DNA of 64,000 nucleotides from a bacterium (GTDB lineage: Bacteria; Patescibacteriota; Minisyncoccia; Sungbacterales; GWA2-42-14): positions 32-64,031 of the forward strand of contig JAUSFV010000006.1 of assembly GCA_030649305.1 (NCBI GenBank), read 5' to 3'. The translations under genes were made by a program, and so were the position numbers. The notes under the pieces were generated by a model that was given only the letters and a program-made list of their open reading frames with translations, made no database searches and had not been told where the DNA came from. Shown here piece after piece: positions 2,623-61,513 of this stretch (the first letter of the stretch is position 1; every line of letters starts with the position of its first letter).

Positions 2623-3099
2623 TTACTTTTCGAAGCGAGGCACACGCGGCTGTTTCCATTGCTCGTATGCTGATTCGGAAAATAATTCGGGATTCGTATC
2701 CTCCTCCAAAAGATCTTTCCATAATGTCCTTACGGCAAAAGCCCTAAGTCGCGACAACTCCTCCGGATCCTTGCCCTGTATCCACGAATTACGAGCATCT
2801 TCGAGATCTGTTAAAAACGTTGCTTCGCGTTTTTTGATTGAGCTTGAGCCGACACCCGCGCGTATCATTTCATGAATAGAAGAAAGCCAATCTAAGACAT
2901 TGTTATACTCATTTTCATCGCGACCAAATCGAGCCGCCAGTTGTTCCTTGCTCCAAAATCCCTCCACCGCTTCTTCGCCAAGCTCCTCCGCTTTTTTTAT
3001 CAAATCGGGATTTGTACGCTCAAGCGACTGCAAATATTCCTGCGCCTTTGGGTCGCGCAGGGTCGGATCGTCTGATTCTAAACGCTCTGGTTTCTCCAT
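2623..3099 (-). CDS. Hypothetical acidic protein, 158 aa; paralog of ORF 1990..2592
   Basis: Track ORF with a shared C-terminal motif with the neighbour and an acidic N-terminus. Confidence 0.5.
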   Translation of the reverse strand: MEKPERLESDDPTLRDPKAQEYLQSLERTNPDLIKKAEELGEEAVEGFWSKEQLAARFGRDENEYNNVLDWLSSIHEMIRAGVGSSSIKKREATFLTDLEDARNSWIQGKDPEELSRLRAFAVRTLWKDLLEEDTNPELFSESAYEQWKQPRVPRFEK

Positions 3100-3249
3100 A
3101 TTATTAAAAACAAAAGCGAAGATGGTTTTTTAAAAACGCTCACCCGACGAAGTTTGCATGGTTCGCCCCATGGGGCGAAAACGAGGAGGGTGGCGAGTTT
3201 GAAATCCACGCTGGGGATTTCAAACAATTTTTAAAAAATCATCAAGCGC

Positions 3250-3717
3250 CTACCACGCAAAATGCGCGAACGCCTTATTTGCCTCCGCCATCCTATGCGT
3301 ATCCATTTTTTTCTTCACGGCATTCCCCTCGTTTTTGGATGCTGCCAAAAGTTCTTCAGCCAAGCGATGATGCATAGCTTTTCCTTTTTTCGCGCGGGCC
3401 GCTAACAAAATCCAGCGAAACGCAAGCGACATTTTCCGGGGTCCCCGCACTTCACGCGGCACCTGATAGTTAGCGCCACCCACGCGGCGCGCCTTGATTT
3501 CTAACAACGGCGAGGCATTGCGAATCGCCAAATCAAACACCGCAAGCGGGTCCTGCTTGTATTCTTTTTCAATCACGTCAAAGGTTTTATACACCACCCT
3601 CTGCGCAACGCTTTTTTTGCCGTCCTTCATGACGTAATTGATAAATTTCCCAACGGTTTCGTTAGAATACTTTACATCCGGAATTATGGGTCGTGTGATG
3701 TTTCGTTTTCTTCTCAT
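3250..3717 (-). CDS. rpsG: 30S ribosomal protein S7
   Basis: 155 aa with typical S7 sequence (…KFINYVMKDGKKSVAQ…, …VPREVRGPRK…), in the str operon position. Confidence 0.9.
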   Translation of the reverse strand: MRRKRNITRPIIPDVKYSNETVGKFINYVMKDGKKSVAQRVVYKTFDVIEKEYKQDPLAVFDLAIRNASPLLEIKARRVGGANYQVPREVRGPRKMSLAFRWILLAARAKKGKAMHHRLAEELLAASKNEGNAVKKKMDTHRMAEANKAFAHFAW

Positions 3718-4753: not shown

Positions 4754-4996
4754 TTATTGATGCGTGAGAACGTGTGATGCGCGATAACATACGAAATAAT
4801 ATACGATTGCGCCTATGAAAGGGAGGGCGCACATAAGAAGAATCATCAAAATGTTTACGACATTTTCTGCCGGCCACATCTTGATGGTCCGGATAACCGC
4901 GTGGATAAACATCCAAAGACCGAAAAAACCCAGCACGAAAACCAGAAGAAACGCAAAAAGCCCGAATCCCGCTATAAACCACCCAATAAAGTCCAT
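4754..4996 (-). CDS. Small 2-TM membrane protein, PLDc_N-like (…LLMCALPFIGAIVYYFVCYR…)
   Basis: Hydrophobic 80-aa ORF whose C-terminal helix matches the PLD-nuclease N-terminal domain pattern (LP.iG..Yl..Gr). Confidence 0.45.
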   Translation of the reverse strand: MDFIGWFIAGFGLFAFLLVFVLGFFGLWMFIHAVIRTIKMWPAENVVNILMILLMCALPFIGAIVYYFVCYRASHVLTHQ

Positions 4997-5181
4997 GCCG
5001 AATCTCCCTCTATATATAGTATCAAAGGAACAAGCGTATTCAGAATAGCAAACCGAATATTTTTGTCAACAAAAAAGGCGCGAAAAGTCCCACAACAACA
5101 TTCCAACATTCTGCCTAAAGCCCGTTGGCTCGGCCAAGTAGGGCAGAATGTTGGAATGTTTAAAAAATGAAAAAAGGCGCA

Positions 5182-5505
5182 CTAGGTACGCCCCTTACCA
5201 AAAAAGAGATCACGATCATACACAAGGAGATCGGCCATAAGCTTGCGCAACCTTCTTGCGGCAACCTCTTTCTTGCTTCCCGTCGTAGAAATAGAAACTC
5301 CCCGCTTTTTATCATTCATACCCGTAACACAAACCACATCCGCCACATATCCCTTGTCTTCCGCGCTATAAAAGACCTGATAACTAAAAGCTTTGCATCT
5401 CCGTACGCGAACGCCACGACGCAACTCGCGAAGCAATTTTACCATGCGTTTTTTCTCCTTTTCAACGATTGTGCGAAACAGCAAGTTGCTGGCCGCAGTT
5501 TCCAC
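5182..5505 (-). CDS. Double-stranded-RNA-binding-domain-like protein
   Basis: …YVADVVCVTG…GSKKEVAARRLRKLMADLL fits the dsRBD C-terminal consensus G.G.SKKEAK.AA..AL. Confidence 0.4.
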   Translation of the reverse strand: METAASNLLFRTIVEKEKKRMVKLLRELRRGVRVRRCKAFSYQVFYSAEDKGYVADVVCVTGMNDKKRGVSISTTGSKKEVAARRLRKLMADLLVYDRDLFFGKGRT

Positions 5506-5656
5506 AGAATTTATTTTCTCGCCAATTTTCTTTCTGACAAGAAACGCACACGATGAATCTGTTGGTTGAGTGAATCCATTTTTCTATCCGCGGCAAAAGA
5601 AGCCACAGAACATACATAGCGATTGCTATAAGAACGCACGCGAGAAGAATATCCAT
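5462..5656 (-). CDS. Small membrane-anchored zinc-ribbon protein, 64 aa
   Basis: N-terminal TM helix followed by CVSC…CGNC; overlaps the upstream ORF by 44 nt. Confidence 0.3.
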   Translation of the reverse strand: MDILLACVLIAIAMYVLWLLLPRIEKWIHSTNRFIVCVSCQKENWRENKFCGNCGQQLAVSHNR

Positions 5657-5767
5657 TTTTCCTCCTTTTTCAACGATCTTATACTCTAACAGTTAAAGAA
5701 ATCCGAAAATTTGAACTGCCGTAAGTATAACAAGATTTCTGAAAGATGTCAAATAAAAAACCGCTCG

Positions 5768-5803
5768 CCTTATCGGCTAATTCGTGCGAATTAGCCGATA
5801 AGG
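5768..5803. repeat. 36-bp perfect palindrome CCTTATCGGCTAATTCG-TG-CGAATTAGCCGATAAGG (copy 1 of 3)
   Basis: Arms are exact reverse complements; lies 4 nt downstream of the M50 protease stop. Identical copies sit near 13564 and 23688. Confidence 0.8.
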
Positions 5804-8888: not shown

Positions 8889-8923
8889 TTATAATAATGA
8901 ATGAGAAGGTTCTATATTTTGGT

Positions 8924-8960
8924 CGGGGTGTAGTATATCGGCAGTACGCATGCATGGGGG
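8924..8960 (+). pseudogene. Orphan 5' half of a tRNA-Pro-like gene (acceptor CGGGGTG, D-arm, anticodon stem 5' strand, loop AUGGGGG)
   Basis: Identical to the 5' half of tRNA-Pro at 9049, including ~12 nt of 5' flank, except acceptor position 5 (G vs C). It is followed by a 12-bp hairpin instead of the 3' anticodon stem. Confidence 0.55.
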
Positions 8961-9048
8961 TGAAGCGTGAATGTCTTCACGCTTCACGGGATTACTTCCC
9001 CCTATGTTTTATTATCAAAGTAATCCCCGGCTCTTTCTGTATTTTGGT

Positions 9049-9122
9049 CGGGCTGTAGTATATCGGCAGTACACATGCATGGGGTGCATGTAGGTCGGGT
9101 TCGATTCCCGACAGCCCGACCA
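9049..9122 (+). tRNA. tRNA-Pro (anticodon GGG), CCA encoded
   Basis: Hand-folded cloverleaf: acceptor CGGGCUG/CAGCCCG, D-stem GUAU/GUAC, anticodon stem CAUGC/GCAUG with loop AUGGGGU, T-arm UCGGG-UUCGAUU-CCCGA, discriminator A. Confidence 0.8.
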
Positions 9123-9138
9123 AAATACAGAACAAAGA

Positions 9139-9174
9139 GATGTAGGCCGGGTTCGATTCCCGGCACCCCGACCA
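9139..9174 (+). pseudogene. Orphan 3' fragment of a tRNA-Pro paralog (variable loop, T-arm CCGGG/CCCGG, acceptor 3' strand CACCCCG, A, CCA)
   Basis: Its acceptor 3' strand complements the orphan 5' half at 8924, not the intact tRNA at 9049; compensatory differences appear in both the acceptor and T stems. Confidence 0.5.
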
Positions 9175-9342
9175 AAAAATTGAAGAAAAAGATGCGGGCC
9201 GGGCCTGCCCCATTAGATGCGAAGCTATCTAATGGGGTGAAATTCCCGGCAACCCCAAAATCAAACCGGACAAAAACGAACTCAAAATACGAAGAAAATC
9301 GATTTAACAAAAAACCGGTAACTAACAAAGTTTTAAATAATT

Positions 9343-13563: not shown

Positions 13564-13597
13564 CTTATCGGCTAATTCGTGCGAATTAGCCGATAAG
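13564..13597. repeat. 34-bp perfect palindrome CTTATCGGCTAATTCGTGCGAATTAGCCGATAAG (copy 2)
   Basis: Identical to the copy at 5768; located just after the mtlD terminator. Confidence 0.8.
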
Positions 13598-23687: not shown

Positions 23688-23722
23688 CCTTATCGGCTAA
23701 TTCGTGCGAATTAGCCGATAAG
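23688..23722. repeat. Perfect palindrome CCTTATCGGCTAATTCGTGCGAATTAGCCGATAAG (copy 3)
   Basis: Identical to the copies at 5768 and 13564; again just 3' of a terminator. Confidence 0.8.
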
Positions 23723-25561: not shown

Positions 25562-25593
25562 CTATTTTCTTATTCGCGCGAATTAGAAATAAG
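25562..25593. promoter_or_regulatory. Near-palindromic site CTATTTTCTTATTCGCGCGAATTAGAAATAAG overlapping the 3' end of the arsR-like gene
   Basis: Core ATTCGCGCGAAT; direct and inverted repeat of the site at 25900-25931. Confidence 0.6.
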
Positions 25594-25848: not shown

Positions 25849-25899
25849 ATTTTCTTTTCCATCTCTCTTCCTATCTTCTCATCTATCCCCTCTTCTCAC

Positions 25900-25931
25900 C
25901 TATTTTCTAATTCGCGCGAATAAGAAAATAG
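25900..25931. promoter_or_regulatory. 32-bp near-perfect palindrome CTATTTTCTAATTCGCGCGAATAAGAAAATAG upstream of the arsR-like gene
   Basis: Arms are reverse complements with one mismatch. Preceded by a CT-rich tract; putative operator. Confidence 0.6.
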
Positions 25932-25972
25932 GTGAACCCACGATAAGAAAAATAGAAAAAAATATTCAGGTG

Positions 25973-51988: not shown

Positions 51989-52086
51989 AACCCGACAATG
52001 TCGGGCTTTTTTTATAAAACAAAAAAACTCCCATACGGGAAGCTTTGCATCTTACAAATAGAAATGGATAGCTAACCTCCAGTTTA

Positions 52087-52476
52087 TTAGGATATACCAA
52101 GCAATTTTTTTATCTCTGTCACAATCTCGCCCGGCAACGTATTTGCCTTGATGAAATACCGCGCGACTTTAAGGCGCTCGGCATCCTCGGTGTGGTGGGG
52201 ATCGGAAAGATTGGAAAGAATAATTACAATGGTATCCTTTCCCTCGGGAAGCGCCCGGACATCCCCGACGAACTCAATCCCGTTTTTCACAGGCATCAAA
52301 ATATCCACGAGAAGCAGGGCGGGGTGTTCTTTCTTGAATACCGCAAGCGCCTCCTCTCCGTTTTTTGCAACAAAAAGTTCCGCAAATCCCTCTTTTATGA
52401 TTGCGTCAGACAGGAGCTGAATCATAAAATCATCATCTTCGGCAAGGAGTATTTTGTATTTTGTTGATTCTGCCAT
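52087..52476 (-). CDS. Single-domain response regulator (CheY-like receiver)
   Basis: KILLAEDDDFMIQLL…LLLVDILMP…: receiver-domain Asp pocket. Confidence 0.75.
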   Translation of the reverse strand: MAESTKYKILLAEDDDFMIQLLSDAIIKEGFAELFVAKNGEEALAVFKKEHPALLLVDILMPVKNGIEFVGDVRALPEGKDTIVIILSNLSDPHHTEDAERLKVARYFIKANTLPGEIVTEIKKLLGIS

Positions 52477-52534
52477 GGTTGTAGTATATCACATAGTATT
52501 ATTTAAAAAAGCAGGGTGTGTATAAAACAGATGA

Positions 52535-52640
52535 TGCCAATTTACAAATCTCATGCCAATAATGCGAATTGCAAATCGTAACCGGTATTCGCAATTTGTA
52601 GATTTGCATACTATTCGCATCACATTGGCATCATACTTGG
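52535..52640. promoter_or_regulatory. Cluster of ATGC(C/G/A)AAT / ATT(G/C/T)GCAT octamer motifs between ftsA and the response-regulator gene
   Basis: ATGCCAAT x2, ATGCGAAT, TTGCAAAT, ATTCGCAAT, ATTTGCAT, ATTCGCAT, ATTGGCAT and TTGGCGAAT within ~100 bp. Confidence 0.5.
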
Positions 52641-52652
52641 CGAATTACTTTC

Positions 52653-53888
52653 TCACGGCAAAAAATACGACAACCAATTCTTCACCCCTGATACCACCCT
52701 CCCGAGCGATGTCGTATAAAAATACGGGTCTTTGCCGGAGGAACGATTCAGGTGCCATGCAACAAGACCAAGTGCCACCGGAATCTCCGACAAAAAATCA
52801 TGCGCCTCACCCGCTCCCTCAAGAAAATCGGATTGCGAACCAATTTCAACCGGAAGCCGGAGTTCGCGCTTTGCCAACTCCACAATCCCCGGAATCCGTG
52901 ATGCCCCGCCGATCAGCACCACCCCCGCGGGAAGCAACCCCATACGATCCACGCGCTTCAGCTCCTTCATGCCGAGTTCAAAAATATCCCGAAAGCGCGC
53001 TTCAATAATTTCAGCCAAATTCCGCTGGGGGAAAAGTGCCGGGTCATCAGGAATAAATTCGGCAAGTTTGATAACTTCGCGCTTGGAAAATACCTCGGGC
53101 AGAGAGTGGCCGAAACGAAGCTTAATGGCTTCTGCCGTGCTCACAGCCGTTTTTAAACCAATCGCGATATCGTTCGTAATGTGATTTCCCCCGACAGGAA
53201 ATACTCCGGCACTCAAAAGGCGCCCCTCTTCATACACGGCAAAATCCGACGTACCCGCGCCGATATCAAGCAACATCACCCCGAGTTCTTTCTGCCGTTT
53301 TGAAAGCGCTGCCTCTGATGCGGCAAGCGGAGAAAATACCACGTCCTCAACGGTAACACCTGAGGACTCAATACATTTAAGCAAACTTGCAACGGCAGAA
53401 CGCAGGCCGTCAATAATGAGCGCGTCCGCCTCAAGACGAATACCCACCATCCCGACGGGATCCTTAATGCCGCCCTCGTTATCAATCCGAAATTCTTTCG
53501 GAATAATGTGAACGATGTCGCGATTCGGATTTTTCGGAGCCAAATTTTCTGCGGCAGTAAGAACGCGCTTCACGTCATCGTCAGAAATTTCGCCGTCAGC
53601 CCTTCCCACCGCGACAACTCCGCGCGACGTAAAAGAACCCATATGCGTCCCGCCGATACTCGCGATACACGAACGAATCTTCACGTTTGAGGAGCGCTCC
53701 GCCTCTTTCAAGGATTTTTTTACAGCGGAGGAAACCTCGTCAATGTCAGCCACCGCACCCCTTCGCATGCCAAAAGCAGGTACACGGCCGAGCCCGAGTA
53801 CCCTGATTTTTTCTTTCCCCGTCCGCTCGCATACCAACGTCGTGACACTATTCGTTCCGATATCAATTGCGGTTATTATGCTTCGCAT
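52653..53888 (-). CDS. ftsA: Cell division protein FtsA
   Basis: ITAIDIGTNSVTTLV… actin-fold N-terminus with FtsA architecture; start at ATG 53888. Confidence 0.8.
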   Translation of the reverse strand: MRSIITAIDIGTNSVTTLVCERTGKEKIRVLGLGRVPAFGMRRGAVADIDEVSSAVKKSLKEAERSSNVKIRSCIASIGGTHMGSFTSRGVVAVGRADGEISDDDVKRVLTAAENLAPKNPNRDIVHIIPKEFRIDNEGGIKDPVGMVGIRLEADALIIDGLRSAVASLLKCIESSGVTVEDVVFSPLAASEAALSKRQKELGVMLLDIGAGTSDFAVYEEGRLLSAGVFPVGGNHITNDIAIGLKTAVSTAEAIKLRFGHSLPEVFSKREVIKLAEFIPDDPALFPQRNLAEIIEARFRDIFELGMKELKRVDRMGLLPAGVVLIGGASRIPGIVELAKRELRLPVEIGSQSDFLEGAGEAHDFLSEIPVALGLVAWHLNRSSGKDPYFYTTSLGRVVSGVKNWLSYFLP

Positions 53889-53982
53889 AATACTCGACAC
53901 CAATACACAAATCGCTCACGAATGTCACGAATACGATTTTTCATTAGTGTCATTCGTGCCCATTCGTGTGTTTGTGTCGGGC
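53886..53982. repeat. ~95-bp element R1 (CAUACUCGACACCAAUACACAAA…CACGAAUGUCACGAAUA…GUCAUUCGUGCCCAUUCGUG…), between ybeY and ftsA
   Basis: ~90% identical to R2 at 55332-55425; begins at the ftsA start codon and contains a bipartite hairpin of CACGAAU/AUUCGUG repeats. Confidence 0.7.
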
Positions 53983-54360
53983 TTACCAAAATATTTTTGC
54001 AAGAATTCGCCCTTCCAGCTTCTCAAACTTCTTCGCTGCCGCACCCCCCCCTTCATGATGTATCCCACCTAAGTGCATCATACCATGCACCGCCATCCAT
54101 GTCATCTGATATTTGTACGTATTTCCTTGCGCTTTTGCCTCTTTTTTTATAACGTCCGGACACACCAAAATCTCGCCGTATTCGGAGCCGTAACGGAATG
54201 ATAATACATTCGTTGGTTTGTTTTTTTTGCGGTAACGGCGATTTAATTCCTGCGATGTTTTCTTGCTAATTTCAATAAAAGCTACCTTTCGTGGTAGCTT
54301 TTTTTTAAGGTATTTCGGAAACAGCTTGACAAGTTTTTTTACAACAGATAAGCTATCCAT
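53983..54360 (-). CDS. ybeY: Endoribonuclease YbeY
   Basis: …MTWMAVHGMMHLGGIHHE… HxxxHxxGxxH zinc motif. Start at internal Met 54360; the longer track ORF is unlikely. Confidence 0.75.
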   Translation of the reverse strand: MDSLSVVKKLVKLFPKYLKKKLPRKVAFIEISKKTSQELNRRYRKKNKPTNVLSFRYGSEYGEILVCPDVIKKEAKAQGNTYKYQMTWMAVHGMMHLGGIHHEGGGAAAKKFEKLEGRILAKIFW

Positions 54361-54389
54361 AGCACACTCAAAATAAAATAGGAGAAGTA

Positions 54390-54590
54390 ATGAAAAGTGC
54401 GCGACACACCTTGCTCGAAATGCTAGATGAGAACGGCGGGAAAATGAACTTAAAGGAAATTGAAAAAAGGATGCGAGCTGCAAAATGTGTAGGAAATGGC
54501 GTAGAACCAATAGACGTCGTTCACGCTGCCGGCAGAGACGGTCAGTTAATTTATGACCCAAAAACACAAACCGCCACTCTTATTTATTGA
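54390..54590 (+). CDS. Hypothetical small protein, 66 aa
   Basis: AGGAGAAG RBS, followed by an intrinsic terminator (CCGCAUUUUU…AAAAAUGCGG plus U6). Confidence 0.4.
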   Translation: MKSARHTLLEMLDENGGKMNLKEIEKRMRAAKCVGNGVEPIDVVHAAGRDGQLIYDPKTQTATLIY

Positions 54591-54845
54591 AAACTAATGT
54601 TTTTATCCACCGCATTTTTAACAAAAAAAATGCGGCTTTTTTATTTCCCCAAAACTTTTTTCACCATACTCCCCCCCCAAAAAAAACGGGGGGAAGAAAA
54701 GAAATCCTTTTGGCGGAGCTCTCGCAGGCAGAAAAAGCTTGGTTTTTTGTGAAACAAAAATTTTTCTGCCGAGAGGCAGTGGTGCTCGCCCGCAGGAGGC
54801 GGGCAACCACGATCCGACAAAAAGATTTCTTTTCTATACCAAACT

Positions 54846-55334
54846 CTATCCTAGCACTTTCTTCACTACTCTACTCACCCGATCCCCCGACGCCTGCCCC
54901 TTCGCGCGTTTCATAATTTCTCCCATAACACGGCCAAAATCTTTTTGCGTGACCTCACCAAGCCCGCCCACAACCTCGCCAACAATTTTTTCAAGCTCCT
55001 CGTCCGACATCTCCTCGGGCAAGTACGATTGTAGCATTACAAGTTCGCGTTTTTCACGCTCCGCCGCCTCCTGCCTTCCGCCTTTTTCATACCCCTCAAT
55101 CGCATCTTTTCGTTTTTTTGCCTCCGTGCGAATTGTCTCAACCATTTCCTCATCCGTCAATTGCGATTCTTTTTCCAGATTCTCCGTACCCCCCCTTTTG
55201 CTTAATTTGGTTCGTTTCTCAATCTCCCGGTTCCGAACCGCGGCAAGCAACATCCGAAGCGTTGAAAGCAAATCGCCCTCGTGTTCCCTAAGGGCTTTTT
55301 TCGCATCATCTTCTATTTTTTGTTTTAGCGTCAT
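54846..55334 (-). CDS. yqeY: GatB/YqeY-domain protein
   Basis: …DLLSTLRMLLAAVRNREIEK… YqeY pattern; sits in the conserved rpsU-yqeY neighbourhood. Confidence 0.65.
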   Translation of the reverse strand: MTLKQKIEDDAKKALREHEGDLLSTLRMLLAAVRNREIEKRTKLSKRGGTENLEKESQLTDEEMVETIRTEAKKRKDAIEGYEKGGRQEAAEREKRELVMLQSYLPEEMSDEELEKIVGEVVGGLGEVTQKDFGRVMGEIMKRAKGQASGDRVSRVVKKVLG

Positions 55335-55425
55335 ACTCGACACCAATACACAAAATTTTCACGAATGTCACGAATAACGATTTCCCGTTAGTGTCATTCG
55401 TGCCCATTCGTGTATTTGTGGCGGG
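55332..55425. repeat. ~95-bp element R2 (paralog of R1) between rpsU and yqeY
   Basis: Begins at the yqeY start codon; same CACGAAUGUCACGAAUA…GUCAUUCGUGCCCAUUCGUG core. Confidence 0.7.
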
Positions 55426-55426
55426 T

Positions 55427-55657
55427 CTATCCGCGGATTTCCTCATCCAATTTGCCAAGCTTAATCAGCCTTCTTTTCTCTTTAATCACCCCCATTCGCC
55501 GAAGCGCGCGGTCTTTTGTGGCGCGTTTACTTGGCGGCGGTTGATAAAAGCGCCCCCGGCGCGCCCGAATCAAAATACCCGACTGCTGGACTCTGCGGGT
55601 GAACCGACGGAGCATTGCCCCGATAGTCTCATGATTTTTTCGTTTGACGTACACCAT
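55427..55657 (-). CDS. rpsU: 30S ribosomal protein S21
   Basis: MVYVKRKNHETIGAMLRRFTRRVQQSGIL…RRGRFYQPPSKR…: S21 pattern. Confidence 0.75.
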   Translation of the reverse strand: MVYVKRKNHETIGAMLRRFTRRVQQSGILIRARRGRFYQPPPSKRATKDRALRRMGVIKEKRRLIKLGKLDEEIRG

Positions 55658-55667
55658 AACAATAAAA

Positions 55668-55773
55668 TTTCTAATTATTAATTTCTAATTAACCTAATCA
55701 AATCCCAACAAAATTAGACATTCAGGGGTTAGGCATTTATTAGAAATTAGGTCAATTAGGAATTAGACATTTG
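55668..55773. repeat. ~106-bp element RA with ~30-bp terminal inverted repeats (TTTCTAATTATTAATTTCTAATTAACCTAAT … ATTAGAAATTAGGTCAATTAGGAATTAGA)
   Basis: ~85% identical to RB at 56171-56277; MITE/REP-like. Confidence 0.65.
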
Positions 55774-55816
55774 AAGACATGCGATAATTCTCCAAACTCC
55801 AAATCCTTCAAGCGAT

Positions 55817-56170
55817 TCATACGCGATACTCGTCTGGATTATCCTCCCTCCCCCATCCTCCGAGCAAATGCAGATGCAAATGATCAATCACCTGCCCCCC
55901 CTCTCTGCCTACATTAAATACTAATTTATATCCTTTCAAGCCCTTCTCTGCGGCAATCTGTTTTGCGCGATAGATTAATTTTGCAATCATGTCGCTATGA
56001 TTTTCCTGCAAATACGCGATGGACTCAACATGTTCTTTTGGAATCACAAGAATATGTACGGGGGCAGATGGCCGAATGTCTTTGAAGGCCTTAATTTCGC
56101 CGTCCTCATACTCAATCTCGGACGAAACCTCGCCCTGCGCAATTTTACAAAAAATACAATCTGAATACAA
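55817..56170 (-). CDS. HIT-family (histidine triad, Hint-like) protein
   Basis: …CIFCKIAQGE… and …IDHLHLHLLGG… histidine triad; apparent TTG start. Confidence 0.75.
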   Translation of the reverse strand: MYSDCIFCKIAQGEVSSEIEYEDGEIKAFKDIRPSAPVHILVIPKEHVESIAYLQENHSDMIAKLIYRAKQIAAEKGLKGYKLVFNVGREGGQVIDHLHLHLLGGWGREDNPDEYRV

Positions 56171-56277
56171 TTTCTAATTACTAATTTCTAATTGACCTAA
56201 ACAAATCACAAACCCCAATTCACAAAATTAGTCATCGGGCATTGATTAGAAATTAGATCAATTAGGAATTAGACATT
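56171..56277. repeat. ~107-bp element RB (paralog of RA) between hisS and the HIT gene
   Basis: The same TIR-bearing element; the two copies flank the HIT gene as direct repeats. Confidence 0.65.
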
Positions 56278-56326
56278 TGCAAACACCGATAAACGAATAT
56301 GCCTCTCTGCAAACATCCTACACCCC

Positions 56327-57745
56327 CTATCGCTTCAGCTTCTTTTTGAGTGTTTCTACCATTTTCTCCCGCAAAATCGTCTCCTGAATTCCCGACGACA
56401 TCTCGCGGATGATAATCGTACCGTCAATCGCCTCTTTTTGACCCAAAATCAGCGAATACTGGGCCTCATTCTTATCTGCAAGCTTTAATTGCGACTTAAC
56501 ACTCGCCTTTCCGATTGATTCCCCGACCGGAATATTGGCATTTCGCAACTCCTCCATAATACGGAAACTTTTCTTTTTTGCAAGGTCTCCCAACTGAACA
56601 AAAAACACTTTCTGCCGAGAACTTCCCGTGCGTATTCCCCGCTGTTTCAAAACCGCGACAAGGCGCTCAATCCCGAGAGCCCCCCCCACCGCGGGCGTGG
56701 GACGCCCGCCGATCATCTCAACAAGCCCGTCGTAGCGCCCGCCCGATCCCAAAGCAAGCAATCTTTTTTCGGGGATACCCTCGGAGACCTTCTCCGGTTC
56801 TTTCTCTTTCTCTACCACGACTCCCTCATCATGAATATTGATTTCCGGACTAACTATTTCTGCCGCTATTTCCGTAGGTTTAGGAGGAGCACTATGCGAA
56901 ACATTCTCATCAAGAAATATTTCAAAAACGGTTCGCGTATAATAATCAAGCCCGCGCACCAGATGCGGATTTAAGTGATACGGAAGGCCATCTTCATCGA
57001 GAAATTCGAGGAGCAATTTGAAATGATCCTTGCACGCCTCACACAGGTGCTCAATCATCTGCGGCGCTCCTTTTTTCGCGATCTCGCATTTTTCTTCCTT
57101 GCAATCAAGCAAACGCAGAGGGTTTGTTTTATACCGCTCCTTACAATCCTTACACAAACCCTTGATGCGCGCGCGATAATATTGCACCAAGAGCGAACGA
57201 TATCCGGGGCGGCATGCACTACAACCAATGCTATTTACATGAAACACAAAATCCTTAATACCAAGCTCCTGAAGCGCTACAGAGAAGACGTGCATAACTT
57301 CCACGTCAGCGATAACGGATTCATCACCAATATTCTCAAGCCCCCACTGATTAAATTCCCGAAACCTCCCTTTTTGCGGTGACTCATGCCGGAAAAACGC
57401 ACCAAAATACCAAAATTTCACGGGATGCGGTTCGCTAACCAAGCCGTTTTCAATATAGGCGCGGGCAACGGACGCCGTACCCTCGGGACGCAAAGTCAAC
57501 GAATCACCCCCGCGCGTACGAAATGAATACATCTGTTTCTCAACGATATCGGACGTTTCCCCAACCGCGCTCAAAAAAAGTTCCGTATCTTCAAAATGCG
57601 GCGTTGCAATCCTCCCGTAGCCGTAATACGAAGAGAGTTCATGCGAAACTTTCCGGAGCTTATCCCAATAGGGCTGCAGGGGAGGCAAAATATCATGCGT
57701 CCCGCGCGGCGCCTGAAAGGGTTTTTGTTTTGGTTTTTTGGTCAT
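56327..57745 (-). CDS. hisS: Histidyl-tRNA synthetase (with a Cys-rich zinc-ribbon-like insertion)
   Basis: …APRGTHDILPP… …LRPEGTASVARAY… class II HisRS motifs; insertion CSACRPGY…CKDCKERY…CKEEKCEIA…CEAC. Confidence 0.8.
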   Translation of the reverse strand: MTKKPKQKPFQAPRGTHDILPPLQPYWDKLRKVSHELSSYYGYGRIATPHFEDTELFLSAVGETSDIVEKQMYSFRTRGGDSLTLRPEGTASVARAYIENGLVSEPHPVKFWYFGAFFRHESPQKGRFREFNQWGLENIGDESVIADVEVMHVFSVALQELGIKDFVFHVNSIGCSACRPGYRSLLVQYYRARIKGLCKDCKERYKTNPLRLLDCKEEKCEIAKKGAPQMIEHLCEACKDHFKLLLEFLDEDGLPYHLNPHLVRGLDYYTRTVFEIFLDENVSHSAPPKPTEIAAEIVSPEINIHDEGVVVEKEKEPEKVSEGIPEKRLLALGSGGRYDGLVEMIGGRPTPAVGGALGIERLVAVLKQRGIRTGSSRQKVFFVQLGDLAKKKSFRIMEELRNANIPVGESIGKASVKSQLKLADKNEAQYSLILGQKEAIDGTIIIREMSSGIQETILREKMVETLKKKLKR

Positions 57746-57794
57746 AATAATACGAATATACAAATATACACTAATTCACGAATCTGCTTAAAAA

Positions 57795-58391
57795 TTAATC
57801 GGAAACAACACCAATCTTTGAAAGAGGCCAGGCCCGAATAAGCGCCCTTCCCGTAATAAACCGCCTGTCCAACGTCCCCCATCTCCGCGAATCCGAACTG
57901 AATTCCCGGTTATCTCCCATAACAAAATATTCTTTATCGGAAAGTTTTACCTCCGTATCACCGTTCGTGCGAAGCCCTTCGGGCAAATAGGGCTCCGGCA
58001 AAACAAAACCATTCGGCTGTTCATCATTTTTAATCCAAACCTCCCCATTGCGGATCTCAACGCGCTCATTCGGAAGCCCGATAACGCGCTTAATAAAAAA
58101 TTGCTTCGGCTGGAGAGGGTAGCGAAATACCACGACTTCGCCCCGTTCCGGCGCGCGGAAAAAATAATATGACGCCTCATCAATAATCAAATACTGCCCG
58201 TCTTCAAACGTAGGGTCCATGGATGCGCCATTCACAATAAAGGGCTGCGCAATAAAATAGCGGATGGGCAAAGCTACTGCCACCGCCACAATCAATACCT
58301 TAAAAAATTCAAATGCTTCGGCGCCCCACCCCCCTCCTTCCTCCTGCGGAGCCTGCTCCGTGGGGTTTTGTCCTATTGTTTTTTCTTCCAT
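57795..58391 (-). CDS. lepB: Signal peptidase I
   Basis: …IVNGASMDPTFEDGQ… (SMxPT) and …GDNREFSSDSRRWG… S26 signature. Confidence 0.8.
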   Translation of the reverse strand: MEEKTIGQNPTEQAPQEEGGGWGAEAFEFFKVLIVAVAVALPIRYFIAQPFIVNGASMDPTFEDGQYLIIDEASYYFFRAPERGEVVVFRYPLQPKQFFIKRVIGLPNERVEIRNGEVWIKNDEQPNGFVLPEPYLPEGLRTNGDTEVKLSDKEYFVMGDNREFSSDSRRWGTLDRRFITGRALIRAWPLSKIGVVSD

Positions 58392-58463
58392 TCTTCAGAT
58401 TATACGAGAAAATTTCATTCTGTGCAATACCACCGAGACAAAAAACGTGTTATACTATGGCTT

Positions 58464-59021
58464 ATGACATATCTTCTCGTCGGCCTCGGGAATTCGGGGA
58501 AAGAATATGAAAACACGCGGCATAATGTGGGCCGAGAAATATTGAAAGGATGGCAGAAAAAAAACGGCCTGCCCGATTTTGAATTTAATAAAAAGTTGAA
58601 TGCGCTCGTGACAAAGAGCAAAAAATGCGTCATCGTGCTTCCCGAAACATTTATGAATAGATCGGGGGCTGCAACGGGGGCGGCCGCGCGATTTTTCAAA
58701 ATAAAACCAAGGGGTATTGTTATCCTGCATGATGATGCCGACATGGAACTTGGCCGCACCAAACTCTCCTTCAACCGCCACTCGGCAGGACACAAGGGCG
58801 TTGAATCAACAAAACGCGCCCTCGGCACGTGGGAATTCTGGCGCCTCCGCATCGGCATCCAAAAAAAGAAACGCGTGGATGCCATGAAACTTGTGTTGCA
58901 AAAATTTTCTCCCGCGGAAGAAATACAACTTAAAAAAACAAGAAAAAAAATATTCGCCGGGCTTGATATGATCCTCTCCGACGGCCCCAGCCACGCGATG
59001 AACTCCATGAATCAAAATTAG
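58464..59021 (+). CDS. pth: Peptidyl-tRNA hydrolase
   Basis: MTYLLVGLGNSGKEYENTRHNVG… Pth N-terminal signature. Confidence 0.85.
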   Translation: MTYLLVGLGNSGKEYENTRHNVGREILKGWQKKNGLPDFEFNKKLNALVTKSKKCVIVLPETFMNRSGAATGAAARFFKIKPRGIVILHDDADMELGRTKLSFNRHSAGHKGVESTKRALGTWEFWRLRIGIQKKKRVDAMKLVLQKFSPAEEIQLKKTRKKIFAGLDMILSDGPSHAMNSMNQN

Positions 59022-59051
59022 AAAAACCGATCGCGCGTGATCGGTTTTCGT

Positions 59052-59303
59052 TTAATAACTTGCTTCTCTGCGCTTCCGAAGCCATACACCGAAAATGCAT
59101 CCTACGGGAATGCCCGCCATAAACCATACGGCTGAAATCATAAAACTTGCTTTTGTGTCGAATCCGGCAAAATGAAACAGGACCGCGAAAACGACAACGG
59201 CAAAACAGATTGCGGTAAAAAGAGAAAAAAGAAACATCAGACGCCCCCGTTCCGCAATCCTTATTATTCCCCTTGTTCTGCTTTCTCGGAAACCAGCCGC
59301 CAC
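59052..59303 (-). CDS. Hypothetical small membrane protein
   Basis: Track ORF, hydrophobic. Overlaps another hydrophobic ORF (59264..59467) in a different frame, so a frameshift or a single gene is possible. Confidence 0.3.
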   Translation of the reverse strand: MAAGFRESRTRGIIRIAERGRLMFLFSLFTAICFAVVVFAVLFHFAGFDTKASFMISAVWFMAGIPVGCIFGVWLRKRREASY

Positions 59304-59536
59304 AACCTATATGACGCATCAGTCGCGGAGAACAAAACACAAATAAAGAGCAAAATGTACAATGGACTAAAATTATGCCTTAGGGCGCTCTCAAGGCCGG
59401 AGATGCCAACAATAAGAGCAGAAACAATAATCCATCCCCGCAGAAACCATACATCCCCGAACCTCATAGTATTTATCTCCTTTCTTAAAGAACCTTGCTT
59501 TTTTGCTAAATCTAAAATATCATAAACGAATAAGAA

Positions 59537-61513
59537 ATGTCAAACGCGCCGCCGAATACAAAAAAGACAGAGGCGGCACAAGAAATATCAGAAGTCATGA
59601 TTGCCGCCATCACCCCCCAATTTTTGGAACGGGGTGTTTTGTGGTTCCAAGAAAATGAAAAACAAATCAAAGAAGCGCTCAAAACAAAGGCATTCTGGAA
59701 GGACAACATCGCAATTCTTGAAAAAGACCTTGTTATAAAACCATCGGAACTTCTGCGCCGCCTTACTGATTTCGGGTATGAGCGGACGAATATAATATTC
59801 GGCAAGGGCGAATTTGCAAACCGCGGAAATATCATTGAGGTATGGCCGATTAATACCGACCAGCCATTCGCGGTTGAATTTTTCGGAAACCGAACTGAAC
59901 GCATCATGCCCGCGCTCAAAAAAGAAACGCCGGCAATCAGGACGAAAGCGCTCAAAACCGAAAGCGGGCTCAAGCGGCTAAAGGCGGGCGATTATCTTGT
60001 CCATCTTGACCACGGCATCGGCATTTTTCGTGGGATAGAACATAACTATTTTTTGATTGAATACGCTCCCCCGCGCCTAGGGGCCAACCCCGACATGCTA
60101 CGCGTACCGCTCGCACAGGAAAAAAAACTCAATCTCTATATCGGATTTGAAACGCCAACCGTGCATCGTCTTGGCGGAAGTACGTGGGCGACGACCAAAC
60201 GAAAAATAAAAGAAGGAGCGGAAAAATTAGCAAAAGAACTTCTTGCCCTTTATGCCACGCGCGAAACAGCCTCGCGCCAACCGTATTACGCCGACCATAT
60301 GGAGCGGACATTTGCGGATGCGTTTCCCTATACAGAGACGCCCGACCAAAAACGCGCGATTGAAGAAATTTACGGAGATTTAGAAAAAGAAAAACCCATG
60401 GACAGGATTCTATGCGGAGATGTCGGATTCGGGAAAACCGAAGTTGCCATGCGCGCCGCCTTCCGCGCGATTCTCAACGGCAGGCAAGTCGCGATAATAG
60501 CGCCCACCACGATTCTTGCCTCCGAACACGAACGCACATTTTTGGAACGCTTTAAAAATGTTCCTGTCCGCATTGCCTCACTTTCACGCCTCACCCCGTC
60601 CAAAGACATAAAACGCATTCTCCGCGAGTGCGATAATGGCGGTATTGATATCCTCATCGGAACGCACCGCCTGCTTTCCCGCGATGTTTCATTTAAAAAC
60701 CTCGGCCTCGTAATCGTTGACGAAGAACAGCGATTCGGCGTCAAACAAAAAGAGCGCTTTAAGCATCTGCGAAGCAATGTTGATATTCTGAATCTCTCGG
60801 CAACCCCGATTCCGCGCACACTCCATTTAGCGCTTACGCATCTCCGCGATATCTCGCGGATTGATACGCCGCCCGAAGGGCGTATGCCCATAAAAAATTT
60901 CATACTTCCCCGCTCCATAAAAACCATACGGCGCGCCATTGAAAATGAACTCTCAAGAGGCGGGCAAATTTATTTTCTCCATAATCGGGTAGAAACCATT
61001 GAGATAATGCGAGAAAAACTTCTTCGGGCACTTCGCGCGATTCCCCACGCGAAAATTGAAATCATCCACGGCAAAATGAATGAGCGCGCCATGCTCCGGG
61101 CGCTTGAGCGCTTCCGAAACAAAGAATGCAATATTCTCCTTGCGACAACCATCATTGAAAACGGCCTTGATTTTTCAAACGCAAATACGCTGATTGTGGA
61201 TAACGCGGTGCGCCTCGGCCTTTCACAGGCGTATCAAATCCGCGGCAGAATCGGACGGGGTGACAGGCAGGCATACGCATATTTTTTCTACAAATCACAC
61301 CATCTCACCGAAAAAGCCCTGCGGCGGCTTGCGGCATTACAAGAATTTGAAGAACTCGGCTCGGGCTACGACATTGCCCTACGCGACTTGGAAATCCGCG
61401 GAGCCGGCAATATTCTCGGCCGGGAGCAATCGGGAGCAATTAACCGAGTCGGGCTCAATCTCTACTGCCAGATTCTTGCCGATGCGGTTGAACAATTAAA
61501 AATAAGAAAATAA
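59537..61513 (+). CDS. mfd: Transcription-repair coupling factor (Mfd), short form lacking the N-terminal UvrB-homology domains
   Basis: …GDVGFGKTEVAMRAAF… …VIVDEEQRFGV… …LEIRGAGNILGREQSG… (TRG motif) in a 658-aa protein. Confidence 0.8.
   Translation: MSNAPPNTKKTEAAQEISEVMIAAITPQFLERGVLWFQENEKQIKEALKTKAFWKDNIAILEKDLVIKPSELLRRLTDFGYERTNIIFGKGEFANRGNIIEVWPINTDQPFAVEFFGNRTERIMPALKKETPAIRTKALKTESGLKRLKAGDYLVHLDHGIGIFRGIEHNYFLIEYAPPRLGANPDMLRVPLAQEKKLNLYIGFETPTVHRLGGSTWATTKRKIKEGAEKLAKELLALYATRETASRQPYYADHMERTFADAFPYTETPDQKRAIEEIYGDLEKEKPMDRILCGDVGFGKTEVAMRAAFRAILNGRQVAIIAPTTILASEHERTFLERFKNVPVRIASLSRLTPSKDIKRILRECDNGGIDILIGTHRLLSRDVSFKNLGLVIVDEEQRFGVKQKERFKHLRSNVDILNLSATPIPRTLHLALTHLRDISRIDTPPEGRMPIKNFILPRSIKTIRRAIENELSRGGQIYFLHNRVETIEIMREKLLRALRAIPHAKIEIIHGKMNERAMLRALERFRNKECNILLATTIIENGLDFSNANTLIVDNAVRLGLSQAYQIRGRIGRGDRQAYAYFFYKSHHLTEKALRRLAALQEFEELGSGYDIALRDLEIRGAGNILGREQSGAINRVGLNLYCQILADAVEQLKIRK

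Follow-up and report, generated by a model that had tools for sequence, protein, structure and literature searches.

The hisS-HIT-rpsU-yqeY operon lies on the minus strand of a 64-kb stretch of DNA (64,000 nucleotides of contig JAUSFV010000006.1, hereafter the window) from a bacterium of the Sungbacterales, a lineage of the Patescibacteria or candidate phyla radiation (CPR). Both spacers around its HIT-family gene are filled by copies of a repeated palindromic element, termed RA and RB, whose nature is considered here (Table 1). Two direct repeats with inverted-repeat ends had been predicted at these places in the two spacers of this minus-strand operon, together with a further repeat, R2, in the rpsU-yqeY spacer, and all of this was confirmed. 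The extent of the repeats had been given correctly as to position but not as to length, the repeat being about 20 nt longer on the high-coordinate side.

Over the spans given in Table 1, RA and RB were found to be identical in 105 of 130 columns of a gapped local alignment (81% overall), with a mean column identity of 86% by MAFFT. The two in-register blocks that hold the arms are 90% (55661-55708 vs 56164-56211) and 92% identical (55732-55779 vs 56238-56285). On the transcribed strand, each copy has CTAATT-type units arrayed in its left arm and AATTAG-type units in its right arm; these terminal inverted repeats are imperfect, matching in 36 of 48 aligned columns in RA and 30 of 38 in RB, with small gaps. 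The 9-mer TTTCTAATT was observed nine times in the window against 1.27 expected, a sevenfold enrichment, with four of the nine inside RA or RB, and the right-arm 35-mer is confined in the window to RA and RB, with none expected. Profile searches of the 64-kb window detected no third copy.

Each of the two copies folds, on either strand, into one long AU-rich hairpin with a stem of 30-45 bp. The minus-strand folds were calculated at -26.3 kcal/mol for RA and -32.1 kcal/mol for RB (z -3.8 and -4.0) and the plus-strand folds at -24.3 and -23.4 kcal/mol (z -4.1 and -4.8), and at most one of 200 shuffled sequences was as stable. Such stems are unlike the short G+C-rich stem followed by a T run that defines an intrinsic terminator, and a terminator scan of 53500-58500 listed nothing at RA or RB. 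Over 52000-60000, no Rfam match was obtained at E<=1, save for a chance snoRNA match elsewhere in that range. A sigma-70 promoter inside the element was also considered: RA contains one weak 9/12 promoter-like match, and a promoter role was dropped because the spacing between the terminal TAGAAA box and the next ATG varies between copies.

Table 1. Coordinates of the two elements, the operon genes and the R2 repeats. Positions refer to the window unless another locus is named; ORF, open reading frame; IVS, intervening sequence.
Feature	Position	Strand	Location	Remarks
RA, ORF-less IVS-type palindromic element	55661..55787	.	HIT-rpsU spacer	repeat, fold and profile matches
RA arms	55668-55708 and 55732-55779			TTTCTAATT.. 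units (plus strand) in the first, ..AATTAG units in the second; centre 55709-55731
RB, second ORF-less copy	56164..56292	.	hisS-HIT spacer	repeat, fold and profile matches
RB arms	56171-56211 and 56238-56285			
hisS	56327..57745	-		transcribed strand: stop codon 34 nt upstream of RB
HIT-family gene, 117 aa	55817..56170	-		sole possible start a TTG overlapping the last bases of RB
Stretch from HIT stop to RA	55788..55816	-		holds the 12-mer TTTGGAGTTTGG
rpsU (S21-like, 76 aa)	55427..55657	-		transcribed strand: ATG 10 nt downstream of RA
R2 copy	55325..55425	-	rpsU-yqeY spacer	ends at yqeY start; -33 kcal/mol, z -4.8
yqeY	54846-55334	-		
Second R2 copy	53882..53985	-	directly upstream of ftsA	ends at ftsA start codon
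rpsU orthologue of locus L065	4103-4342 (of L065)			

The arm sequence of RA and RB recurs far beyond the window. A 22-mer from the arm (21 specified bases) was scanned against one genome per GTDB species and was found at 64 loci, where roughly 0.3-3 would be expected by chance as estimated from base composition. The labels of 46 of these loci are CPR lineages, including Saccharibacteria, Levyi-, Nealson-, Roizman-, Curtiss-, Davies- and Woesebacteria as well as Doudna-, Berkel-, Magasanik- and Liptonbacteria, CPR2 and Parcubacteria. About six of the 64 look like chance or coding matches, three of them being one homologous Spiroplasma gene. Nearly all others show the same layout, in which a CTAATT array is followed by CCAAT-like units and, beyond a short centre, ATTGG-like units precede an AATTAG array, and the number of units in the 7-8-nt CTAATTN and AATTAGN arrays varies among copies. 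RA and RB are therefore members of a CPR-wide family, and multiple copies per genome are found in other CPR as well: several genomes have two or three seed matches on separate contigs, and some 8-kb loci hold two or three copies, with up to three within 2.5 kb. Another single gene bracketed by two copies was found in L016. Where both neighbouring genes could be called, the distance of ORF-less copies is -15 to +13 nt to the upstream stop and 3 to 23 nt to the next start, and the two orientations are about equally frequent. No match to the 22-mer was found in viral contigs.

The element was also observed in contigs of metagenome-assembled genomes (MAGs) with other labels, none of which could be verified. 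Nine MAG contigs labelled Gammaproteobacteria, Pseudomonadales or Proteobacteria (L004, L010, L039, L040, L043, L047, L055, L064 and L011) carry typical CTAATT elements, one with a gene between the arms of the kind described below, and the flanks of L047 resemble those of the Levyibacteriota locus L020. The Omnitrophota loci L050 and L063 also have the element. Unless these labels or bins are wrong, the host range of the element exceeds CPR.

At seven of the 64 loci, the arms stand about 400 nt apart and enclose an ORF of 120 aa, as detected by tblastn next to the seed match. The full-length element of about 0.5 kb thus consists of a CTAATT-type 5' arm, a gene for a four-helix-bundle (4HB) protein of about 120 aa and a complementary AATTAG-type 3' arm. 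The ORF begins 8-11 nt past the 5' arm, the 3' arm follows the stop codon, and the next host ATG comes within a few bases. Its product matches PF05635, a family named '23S rRNA intervening sequence protein' (E about 1e-13), and the TIGR02436 four-helix bundle (E 3e-21), and is related to PDB 2RLD. No 4HB gene was detected in the window by tblastn, RA and RB being ORF-less; the minus-strand centre of RB, CCCGATGACTAAT, is similar to CCCAATGACNAAT, the junction that full-length elements have at the 4HB start codon. Both forms were found on one contig in L017. The original prediction had recommended a search for a transposase with matching inverted repeats; ORF-bearing relatives with the same arms do exist, although their ORF has no transposase domain and is not a known transposase.

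An independent ascertainment was made by searching metagenome contigs with the protein alone. The best 80 of 555 loci were kept, so that the flank result applies to this 4HB subfamily, and flank statistics were obtained from the 73 distinct loci with adequate flanks. At 55 of the 73, at least two CTAAT units were found within 100 nt upstream together with at least two ATTAG units within 120 nt downstream, and at 45 there are at least three units on each side; the reverse arrangement, with ATTAG units upstream, was found at none of the 73. The flanks of the gene pair with each other at a median of -40 kcal/mol (z -4.1). Upstream, 68 loci have the end of a co-directional gene, its stop a median of 49 nt before the 4HB ATG, and the next gene starts downstream at 58, a median of 73 nt after the 4HB stop. 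A few homologues have arms of other units (CCGAAAT, CGAATG and TTCCAAT), and the co-divergence of arm dialect and protein is a small effect (68.4% vs 64.3% mean identity).

Within the 64-kb window, profiles for nhmmer built from the flanks of 54 of the protein-found loci gave matches at RA and RB and nowhere else, the E values ranging from 4e-14 to 8e-7. For RA, the values were 4.5e-14 and 7.8e-7 on the plus strand and 1.6e-8 and 3.6e-8 on the minus strand; for RB, they were 3.7e-14 and 1.7e-8 on the plus strand and 3.2e-11 and 2.4e-10 on the minus strand. The slightly better scores on the plus strand indicate that RA and RB are probably inverted relative to the operon. The identity of RA and RB with this family, and their derivation from the ORF-bearing form, can be held with high confidence.

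IVSs with an S23p or 23S_rRNA_IVP ORF are known from the rRNA of Coxiella, Leptospira and Brucella, and ORF-less forms from Salmonella and others. In Coxiella burnetii, helix 45 of the 23S rRNA holds an IVS that is described as a selfish element of 428 nt with an S23p ORF of the PF05635 family; it has a 28-bp terminal inverted-repeat stem and variable-number tandem heptamers beside the ORF, and RNase III excises it within the stem (PMC4990558). The distribution of rRNA IVSs is sporadic (PMC4990558), and a survey of CPR rRNA found 23S_rRNA_IVP ORFs together with many short ORF-less insertions at IVS sites (PMC11270868). The present family resembles these IVSs in its terminal stem of about 30 bp, its tandem heptamers, its optional PF05635 ORF of about 120 aa and its short ORF-less forms. 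One member, moreover, lies inside a 23S insertion: in L021 (JBBTRE010000037.1), the CPR 23S rRNA gene carries an insertion of about 480 nt (2660-3140, minus strand, near model position 2590) that holds an ORF-less CTAATT/AATTAG hairpin at about 2780-2900, and no group I intron was called there at the gathering threshold. Unlike the rRNA IVSs, however, RA, RB and nearly all other copies lie between protein-coding genes of housekeeping operons and not in helix 25 or 45, and many copies with common CTAATT/AATTAG arms are spread over many CPR phyla. Excision by RNase III would apply to them by analogy.

The orthologous loci of relatives show that the presence of the element differs between close relatives of the window organism. 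The best homologues of the window hisS are metagenome proteins (76-83% identical), followed by proteins from Candidatus Sungbacteria and other Parcubacteria (about 60%). With 83% as the highest hisS identity in the protein database, the genome of the window is apparently present neither there nor among the GTDB representatives, and a look-up of the exact rpsU sequence gave no record. The order lepB-hisS-HIT-rpsU-yqeY...ybeY-ftsA is conserved in relatives. The hisS-HIT-rpsU-yqeY synteny is present without the element in L065, L148 and L149. In L065 (hisS 82% identical), the two spacers of 79 and 45 nt lack the CTAATT element and have other short-unit hairpins; in L148 (62%), the hisS-HIT gap is 1 nt; and in L149, the spacers hold GACATG/CATGTC hairpins. 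L066 (77%) has a CTAATT element at the RA position only, with a different hairpin, AAACGCAA/TTGCGTT, at the RB position. A full-length PF05635 element with TCCAA/TTGGA-type arms was found in the lepB-hisS spacer of L150 (82%; JGI Ga0620836_024778, positions 482-853). The orthologous loci therefore do not carry one conserved sequence at constant copy number, and the mobile-element reading of the original prediction survives.

Taken together, these data make it likely that RA and RB are non-autonomous, ORF-less copies of a palindromic IVS-type element that is widespread in CPR. The two would be relics of two insertions, or of one insertion followed by local copying or gene conversion, and would be co-transcribed with the operon. 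By analogy with rRNA IVSs, RNase III would then cut the RNA hairpin without religation, with which a stem of at least 20 bp is compatible, and the cutting would separate the cistrons of the operon transcript harmlessly. Processing by RNase III is put forward tentatively, as a serious possibility rather than an expectation. The elements may be tolerated only in rRNA helix tips, introns and intercistronic gaps, because cutting would be harmless there. The 4HB protein, a relative of the accessory protein Avd of diversity-generating retroelements (DGRs), is the only candidate for an element-encoded factor in spread. Genuine mobility of the element is favoured by its distribution, with somewhat less assurance than the account as a whole.

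Several observations weigh against this account. No recognised transposase or recombinase is associated with the elements, so that the case for mobility is one from distribution. Nor could a target-site duplication be demonstrated at the 64 loci, the direct repeats scoring 0.64 against 0.66 for the shuffled control with ends that are fuzzy; the exact insertion boundaries are blurred because the ends are of low complexity, and duplex-defined ends ran into the flanks. Sense and antisense stems of the 73 ORF-bearing loci are similar in stability (39 vs 33, p 0.4) and in G-U pairs (433 vs 443), and the transcribed strand is favoured in just 14 of 24 ORF-less loci, a weak trend. As both strands pair alike, there is no signature of selection on RNA rather than DNA, and a functional RNA accounts for this strand symmetry no better than young palindromes or recognition at the DNA level do. 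Just two copies are present within the 64-kb window, and some loci elsewhere carry the unverified gammaproteobacterial MAG or Omnitrophota labels. Finally, the orthologous spacers of relatives are not empty and hold other tandem-unit hairpins, which leaves room for an evolution of the dialects in situ.

The bracketing of HIT by two direct-orientation copies had suggested that they mobilised the gene, as cargo of a composite element or in the manner of an integron cassette. This can practically be dismissed. In L065, L066, L148 and L149, HIT lies between hisS and rpsU although these loci have no element, a single copy or a gap of just 1 nt, and pairs of copies in adjacent spacers surround unrelated genes in L016, L046 and L005. 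Since operon order is kept in relatives without the element, HIT is a resident gene, which looks bracketed because the two spacers that RA and RB fill are neighbours in a conserved operon. The other alternative raised at the outset, intercistronic hairpins that serve the host by attenuation or termination, mRNA stabilisation or start occlusion and that have spread by selection for this function, has more in its favour: every copy lies in a transcribed spacer, its end 0-23 nt away from the next start codon, in both RA and RB the better fold is that of the transcribed strand (energies given above), nearly every spacer of the operon in the window and in relatives has some long hairpin, and the ends are A tracts and T tracts as in bidirectional terminators. 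It is nevertheless unlikely. The sequence of the orthologous spacers is not conserved and L148 has no hisS-HIT spacer at all, which argues against a conserved locus-specific regulatory RNA; the two orientations are roughly equal, and there is no excess of G-U pairs on the sense strand; no terminator call or Rfam match was obtained, and AU-rich stems of this length are unlike canonical terminators; and in the full-length form, a selfish-looking ORF separates the arms by 400 nt. As a consequence of insertion, the hairpins may act on the operon transcript.

Palindromes of this kind could also be made locally, by slippage and hairpin-templated repair in repair-poor CPR genomes, with the dialects arising by convergence or gene conversion. 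Arms made of 6-8-nt unit arrays of variable copy number, units that differ by spacer and relative (CTAATT, CGAATG, ACAAT, AAACGCAA, CTGAAT and GACATG), equally good pairing of both strands and the difference in heptamer number between Coxiella strains (PMC4990558) would all accord with such an origin, and slippage in situ may be the source of the changing unit dialects. As an explanation of RA and RB, local formation is nonetheless improbable: an arm of 21 specified bases and a 61-79% identical 4HB gene recur jointly at unrelated loci in many CPR phyla, which convergence cannot explain, and the profile matches to RA and RB, obtained with sequences of unrelated loci, reach E 1e-14. The organisation had further been likened to that of a miniature inverted-repeat transposable element (MITE), and in part rightly, as RA and RB are small, ORF-less, palindromic and dispersed, with terminal inverted repeats, more than one copy and a presence that varies between relatives (none in L065, RA position only in L066). 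A classical MITE would, however, be an internally deleted derivative of a transposase-bearing insertion sequence with the same terminal repeats, mobilised in trans and flanked by target-site duplications. The ORF between matching arms is the 120-aa four-helix bundle of PF05635 in seven of seven genome loci and 55 metagenome loci and never a transposase, no target-site duplication was demonstrated, and the viral contigs gave no matches; a classical MITE is hence very improbable.

A broader proposal is that RA and RB belong to a pervasive, transposase-less class of mobile elements in CPR, defined by a hairpin of 7-8-nt units and a pentameric Avd/S23p-like 4HB protein and including the classical rRNA IVSs. 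Such elements would colonise transcribed sites that tolerate cleavage without religation, namely intercistronic gaps, rRNA helix tips and intron loops. Spread would be driven by the 4HB protein through recognition of the unit arrays, possibly via an RNA intermediate and a reverse transcriptase acting in trans, as for Avd in DGRs, and RA, RB and R2 would be three relics within one operon. This extension is speculative and, at present, doubtful.

Other known systems share some of these features. The Correia elements of Neisseria, ERIC/IRU of enterobacteria and REPINs of Pseudomonas are imperfect palindromes of 100-150 bp that are present in multiple copies, in both orientations, in transcribed intergenic regions. 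They form hairpins in mRNA, and Correia and ERIC transcripts are reportedly processed by RNases. The present family is like them in size, palindromic structure, location in transcribed spacers and occurrence in both orientations and in multiple copies. These families are, however, confined to a genus or family, are served by DDE or RAYT transposases or have no known partner, and do not have arms built as arrays of 7-8-nt units; to our knowledge, no full-length form of them carries a PF05635 gene. DGRs are common in CPR. Avd belongs to the same PF05635 four-helix-bundle family as the element protein (PMC10053308). Unlike in DGRs, no reverse transcriptase, template repeat or variable repeat was found beside the elements examined, and the 4HB gene is a solitary ORF inside a hairpin. 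TIGR arrays consist of tandem 36-nt units with two spacers each (edge-spacerA-loop-spacerB) beside a Nop-domain Tas gene (PMC12045711). They are likewise short, repeat-rich, RNA-coding loci of CPR, and some variants form hairpins (PMC12045711). A TIGR-Tas array was rejected for RA and RB, which are solitary hairpins of 7-8-nt units with hisS, HIT and rpsU as neighbours and no Tas gene nearby.

The two R2 copies in the window are hairpins of about 100 nt, 87-90% identical, with folding energies of -33 to -34 kcal/mol (z -3.8 to -4.8). Their arms consist of tandem CACGAATG / CATTCGTG units, that is, the architecture of RA and RB with a different unit, and R2 is probably the same class of element. 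Arms of the CGAATG/CATTCG type flank 4HB genes in L145, L137 and L089; R2 has just a short motif in common with these flanks (z 4.1 in one comparison), and the link is suggestive. The 12-mer between the HIT stop and RA was recognised by eye in the 3' arm of the full-length element of L150, and the stretch that holds it may be what is left of an earlier element with a different dialect.

As for the operon genes, their names are backed by Pfam matches on the syntenic orthologues of L065 and L148 (tRNA-synt_His, HIT (PF01230) and YqeY), and in both loci an ORF of rpsU length sits between HIT and YqeY. RB adjoins the HIT start so closely that both T's of the TTG codon are its final bases. The rpsU start has no Shine-Dalgarno sequence. 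Across the window, only 20 of 53 genes were observed to have a Shine-Dalgarno-like motif, mostly a strong AAGGAGG, and many others have a TATAAT-like box 6-12 nt before the ATG (e.g., 57795-58391, 58464-59021, 52087-52476 and 3250-3717), a sequence pattern that suggests widespread leaderless or very short-leader mRNAs. Between yqeY and ybeY, L065 has an insertion (4940-5696) that comprises a HicA-toxin gene, a small ORF upstream of it and an extra ORF on the reverse strand; the window instead has a different small ORF plus a structured region there. Small insertions have a hotspot in this part of the operon. The structured region includes a 150-nt multi-branched fold on the minus strand just downstream of the yqeY stop (54696-54845; -65.6 kcal/mol, z -7.05, 0 of 200 shuffles as stable), for which no Rfam match was obtained at E<=1 and which could represent either a small RNA that lacks annotation or a further composite palindrome.

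Further structured repeats were noted elsewhere in the window. A perfect 19-bp inverted repeat, AACATTCCAACATTCTGCC ... GGCAGAATGTTGGAATGTT, at 5097-5160 (z -5.7) ends 6 nt before the ATG at 5167, and its arms contain tandem AACATTC units. Three intergenic copies of a perfect 16-17-bp hairpin, CTTATCGGCTAATTCG-NN-CGAATTAGCCGATAAG (5768-5803, 13564-13597 and 23689-23722), may form a terminator-like repeat family, and related short palindromes, TTTCTAATTCGCGCGAAT.., are found at 25566-25589 and 25896-25935. Tandem direct repeats at 8910-9191 include a tRNA T-arm-like sequence (GGTCGGGTTCGATTCCCGAC) and are probably adjacent tRNA genes by this resemblance; the identity is 94% between 8910-8959 and 9035-9084 and 85% between 9088-9139 and 9140-9191.

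What does this family add to the understanding of intervening sequences? The IVS-type anatomy is already known; what is new is the intercistronic location, the copy number, the conservation of the arms across phyla and the abundance of ORF-less derivatives. No description of the element between protein-coding genes, or of its arm sequence, was found in the literature, and the family is apparently undescribed. It ties the puzzle of the rRNA intervening sequences to elements that occupy the spaces between ordinary genes. Where rRNA IVSs and the S23p protein come from, whether they move and what purpose they have are questions that date back to about 1990 (PMC4990558), and hundreds of copies in both forms, with differences in presence and absence between close relatives, make them testable by comparative genomics and simple biochemistry. 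A general rule for the sites of such elements may be that they lie where cutting of the RNA does no harm. The elements fill whole spacers of CPR genomes, bring stops in all frames, can supply or displace start codons, as at the HIT TTG, and create spurious ORFs, and they thereby affect gene calling and operon prediction in CPR, a very large and little-understood part of the bacterial tree. An arm sequence common to several phyla is, in addition, a potential marker of horizontal exchange among CPR bacteria.

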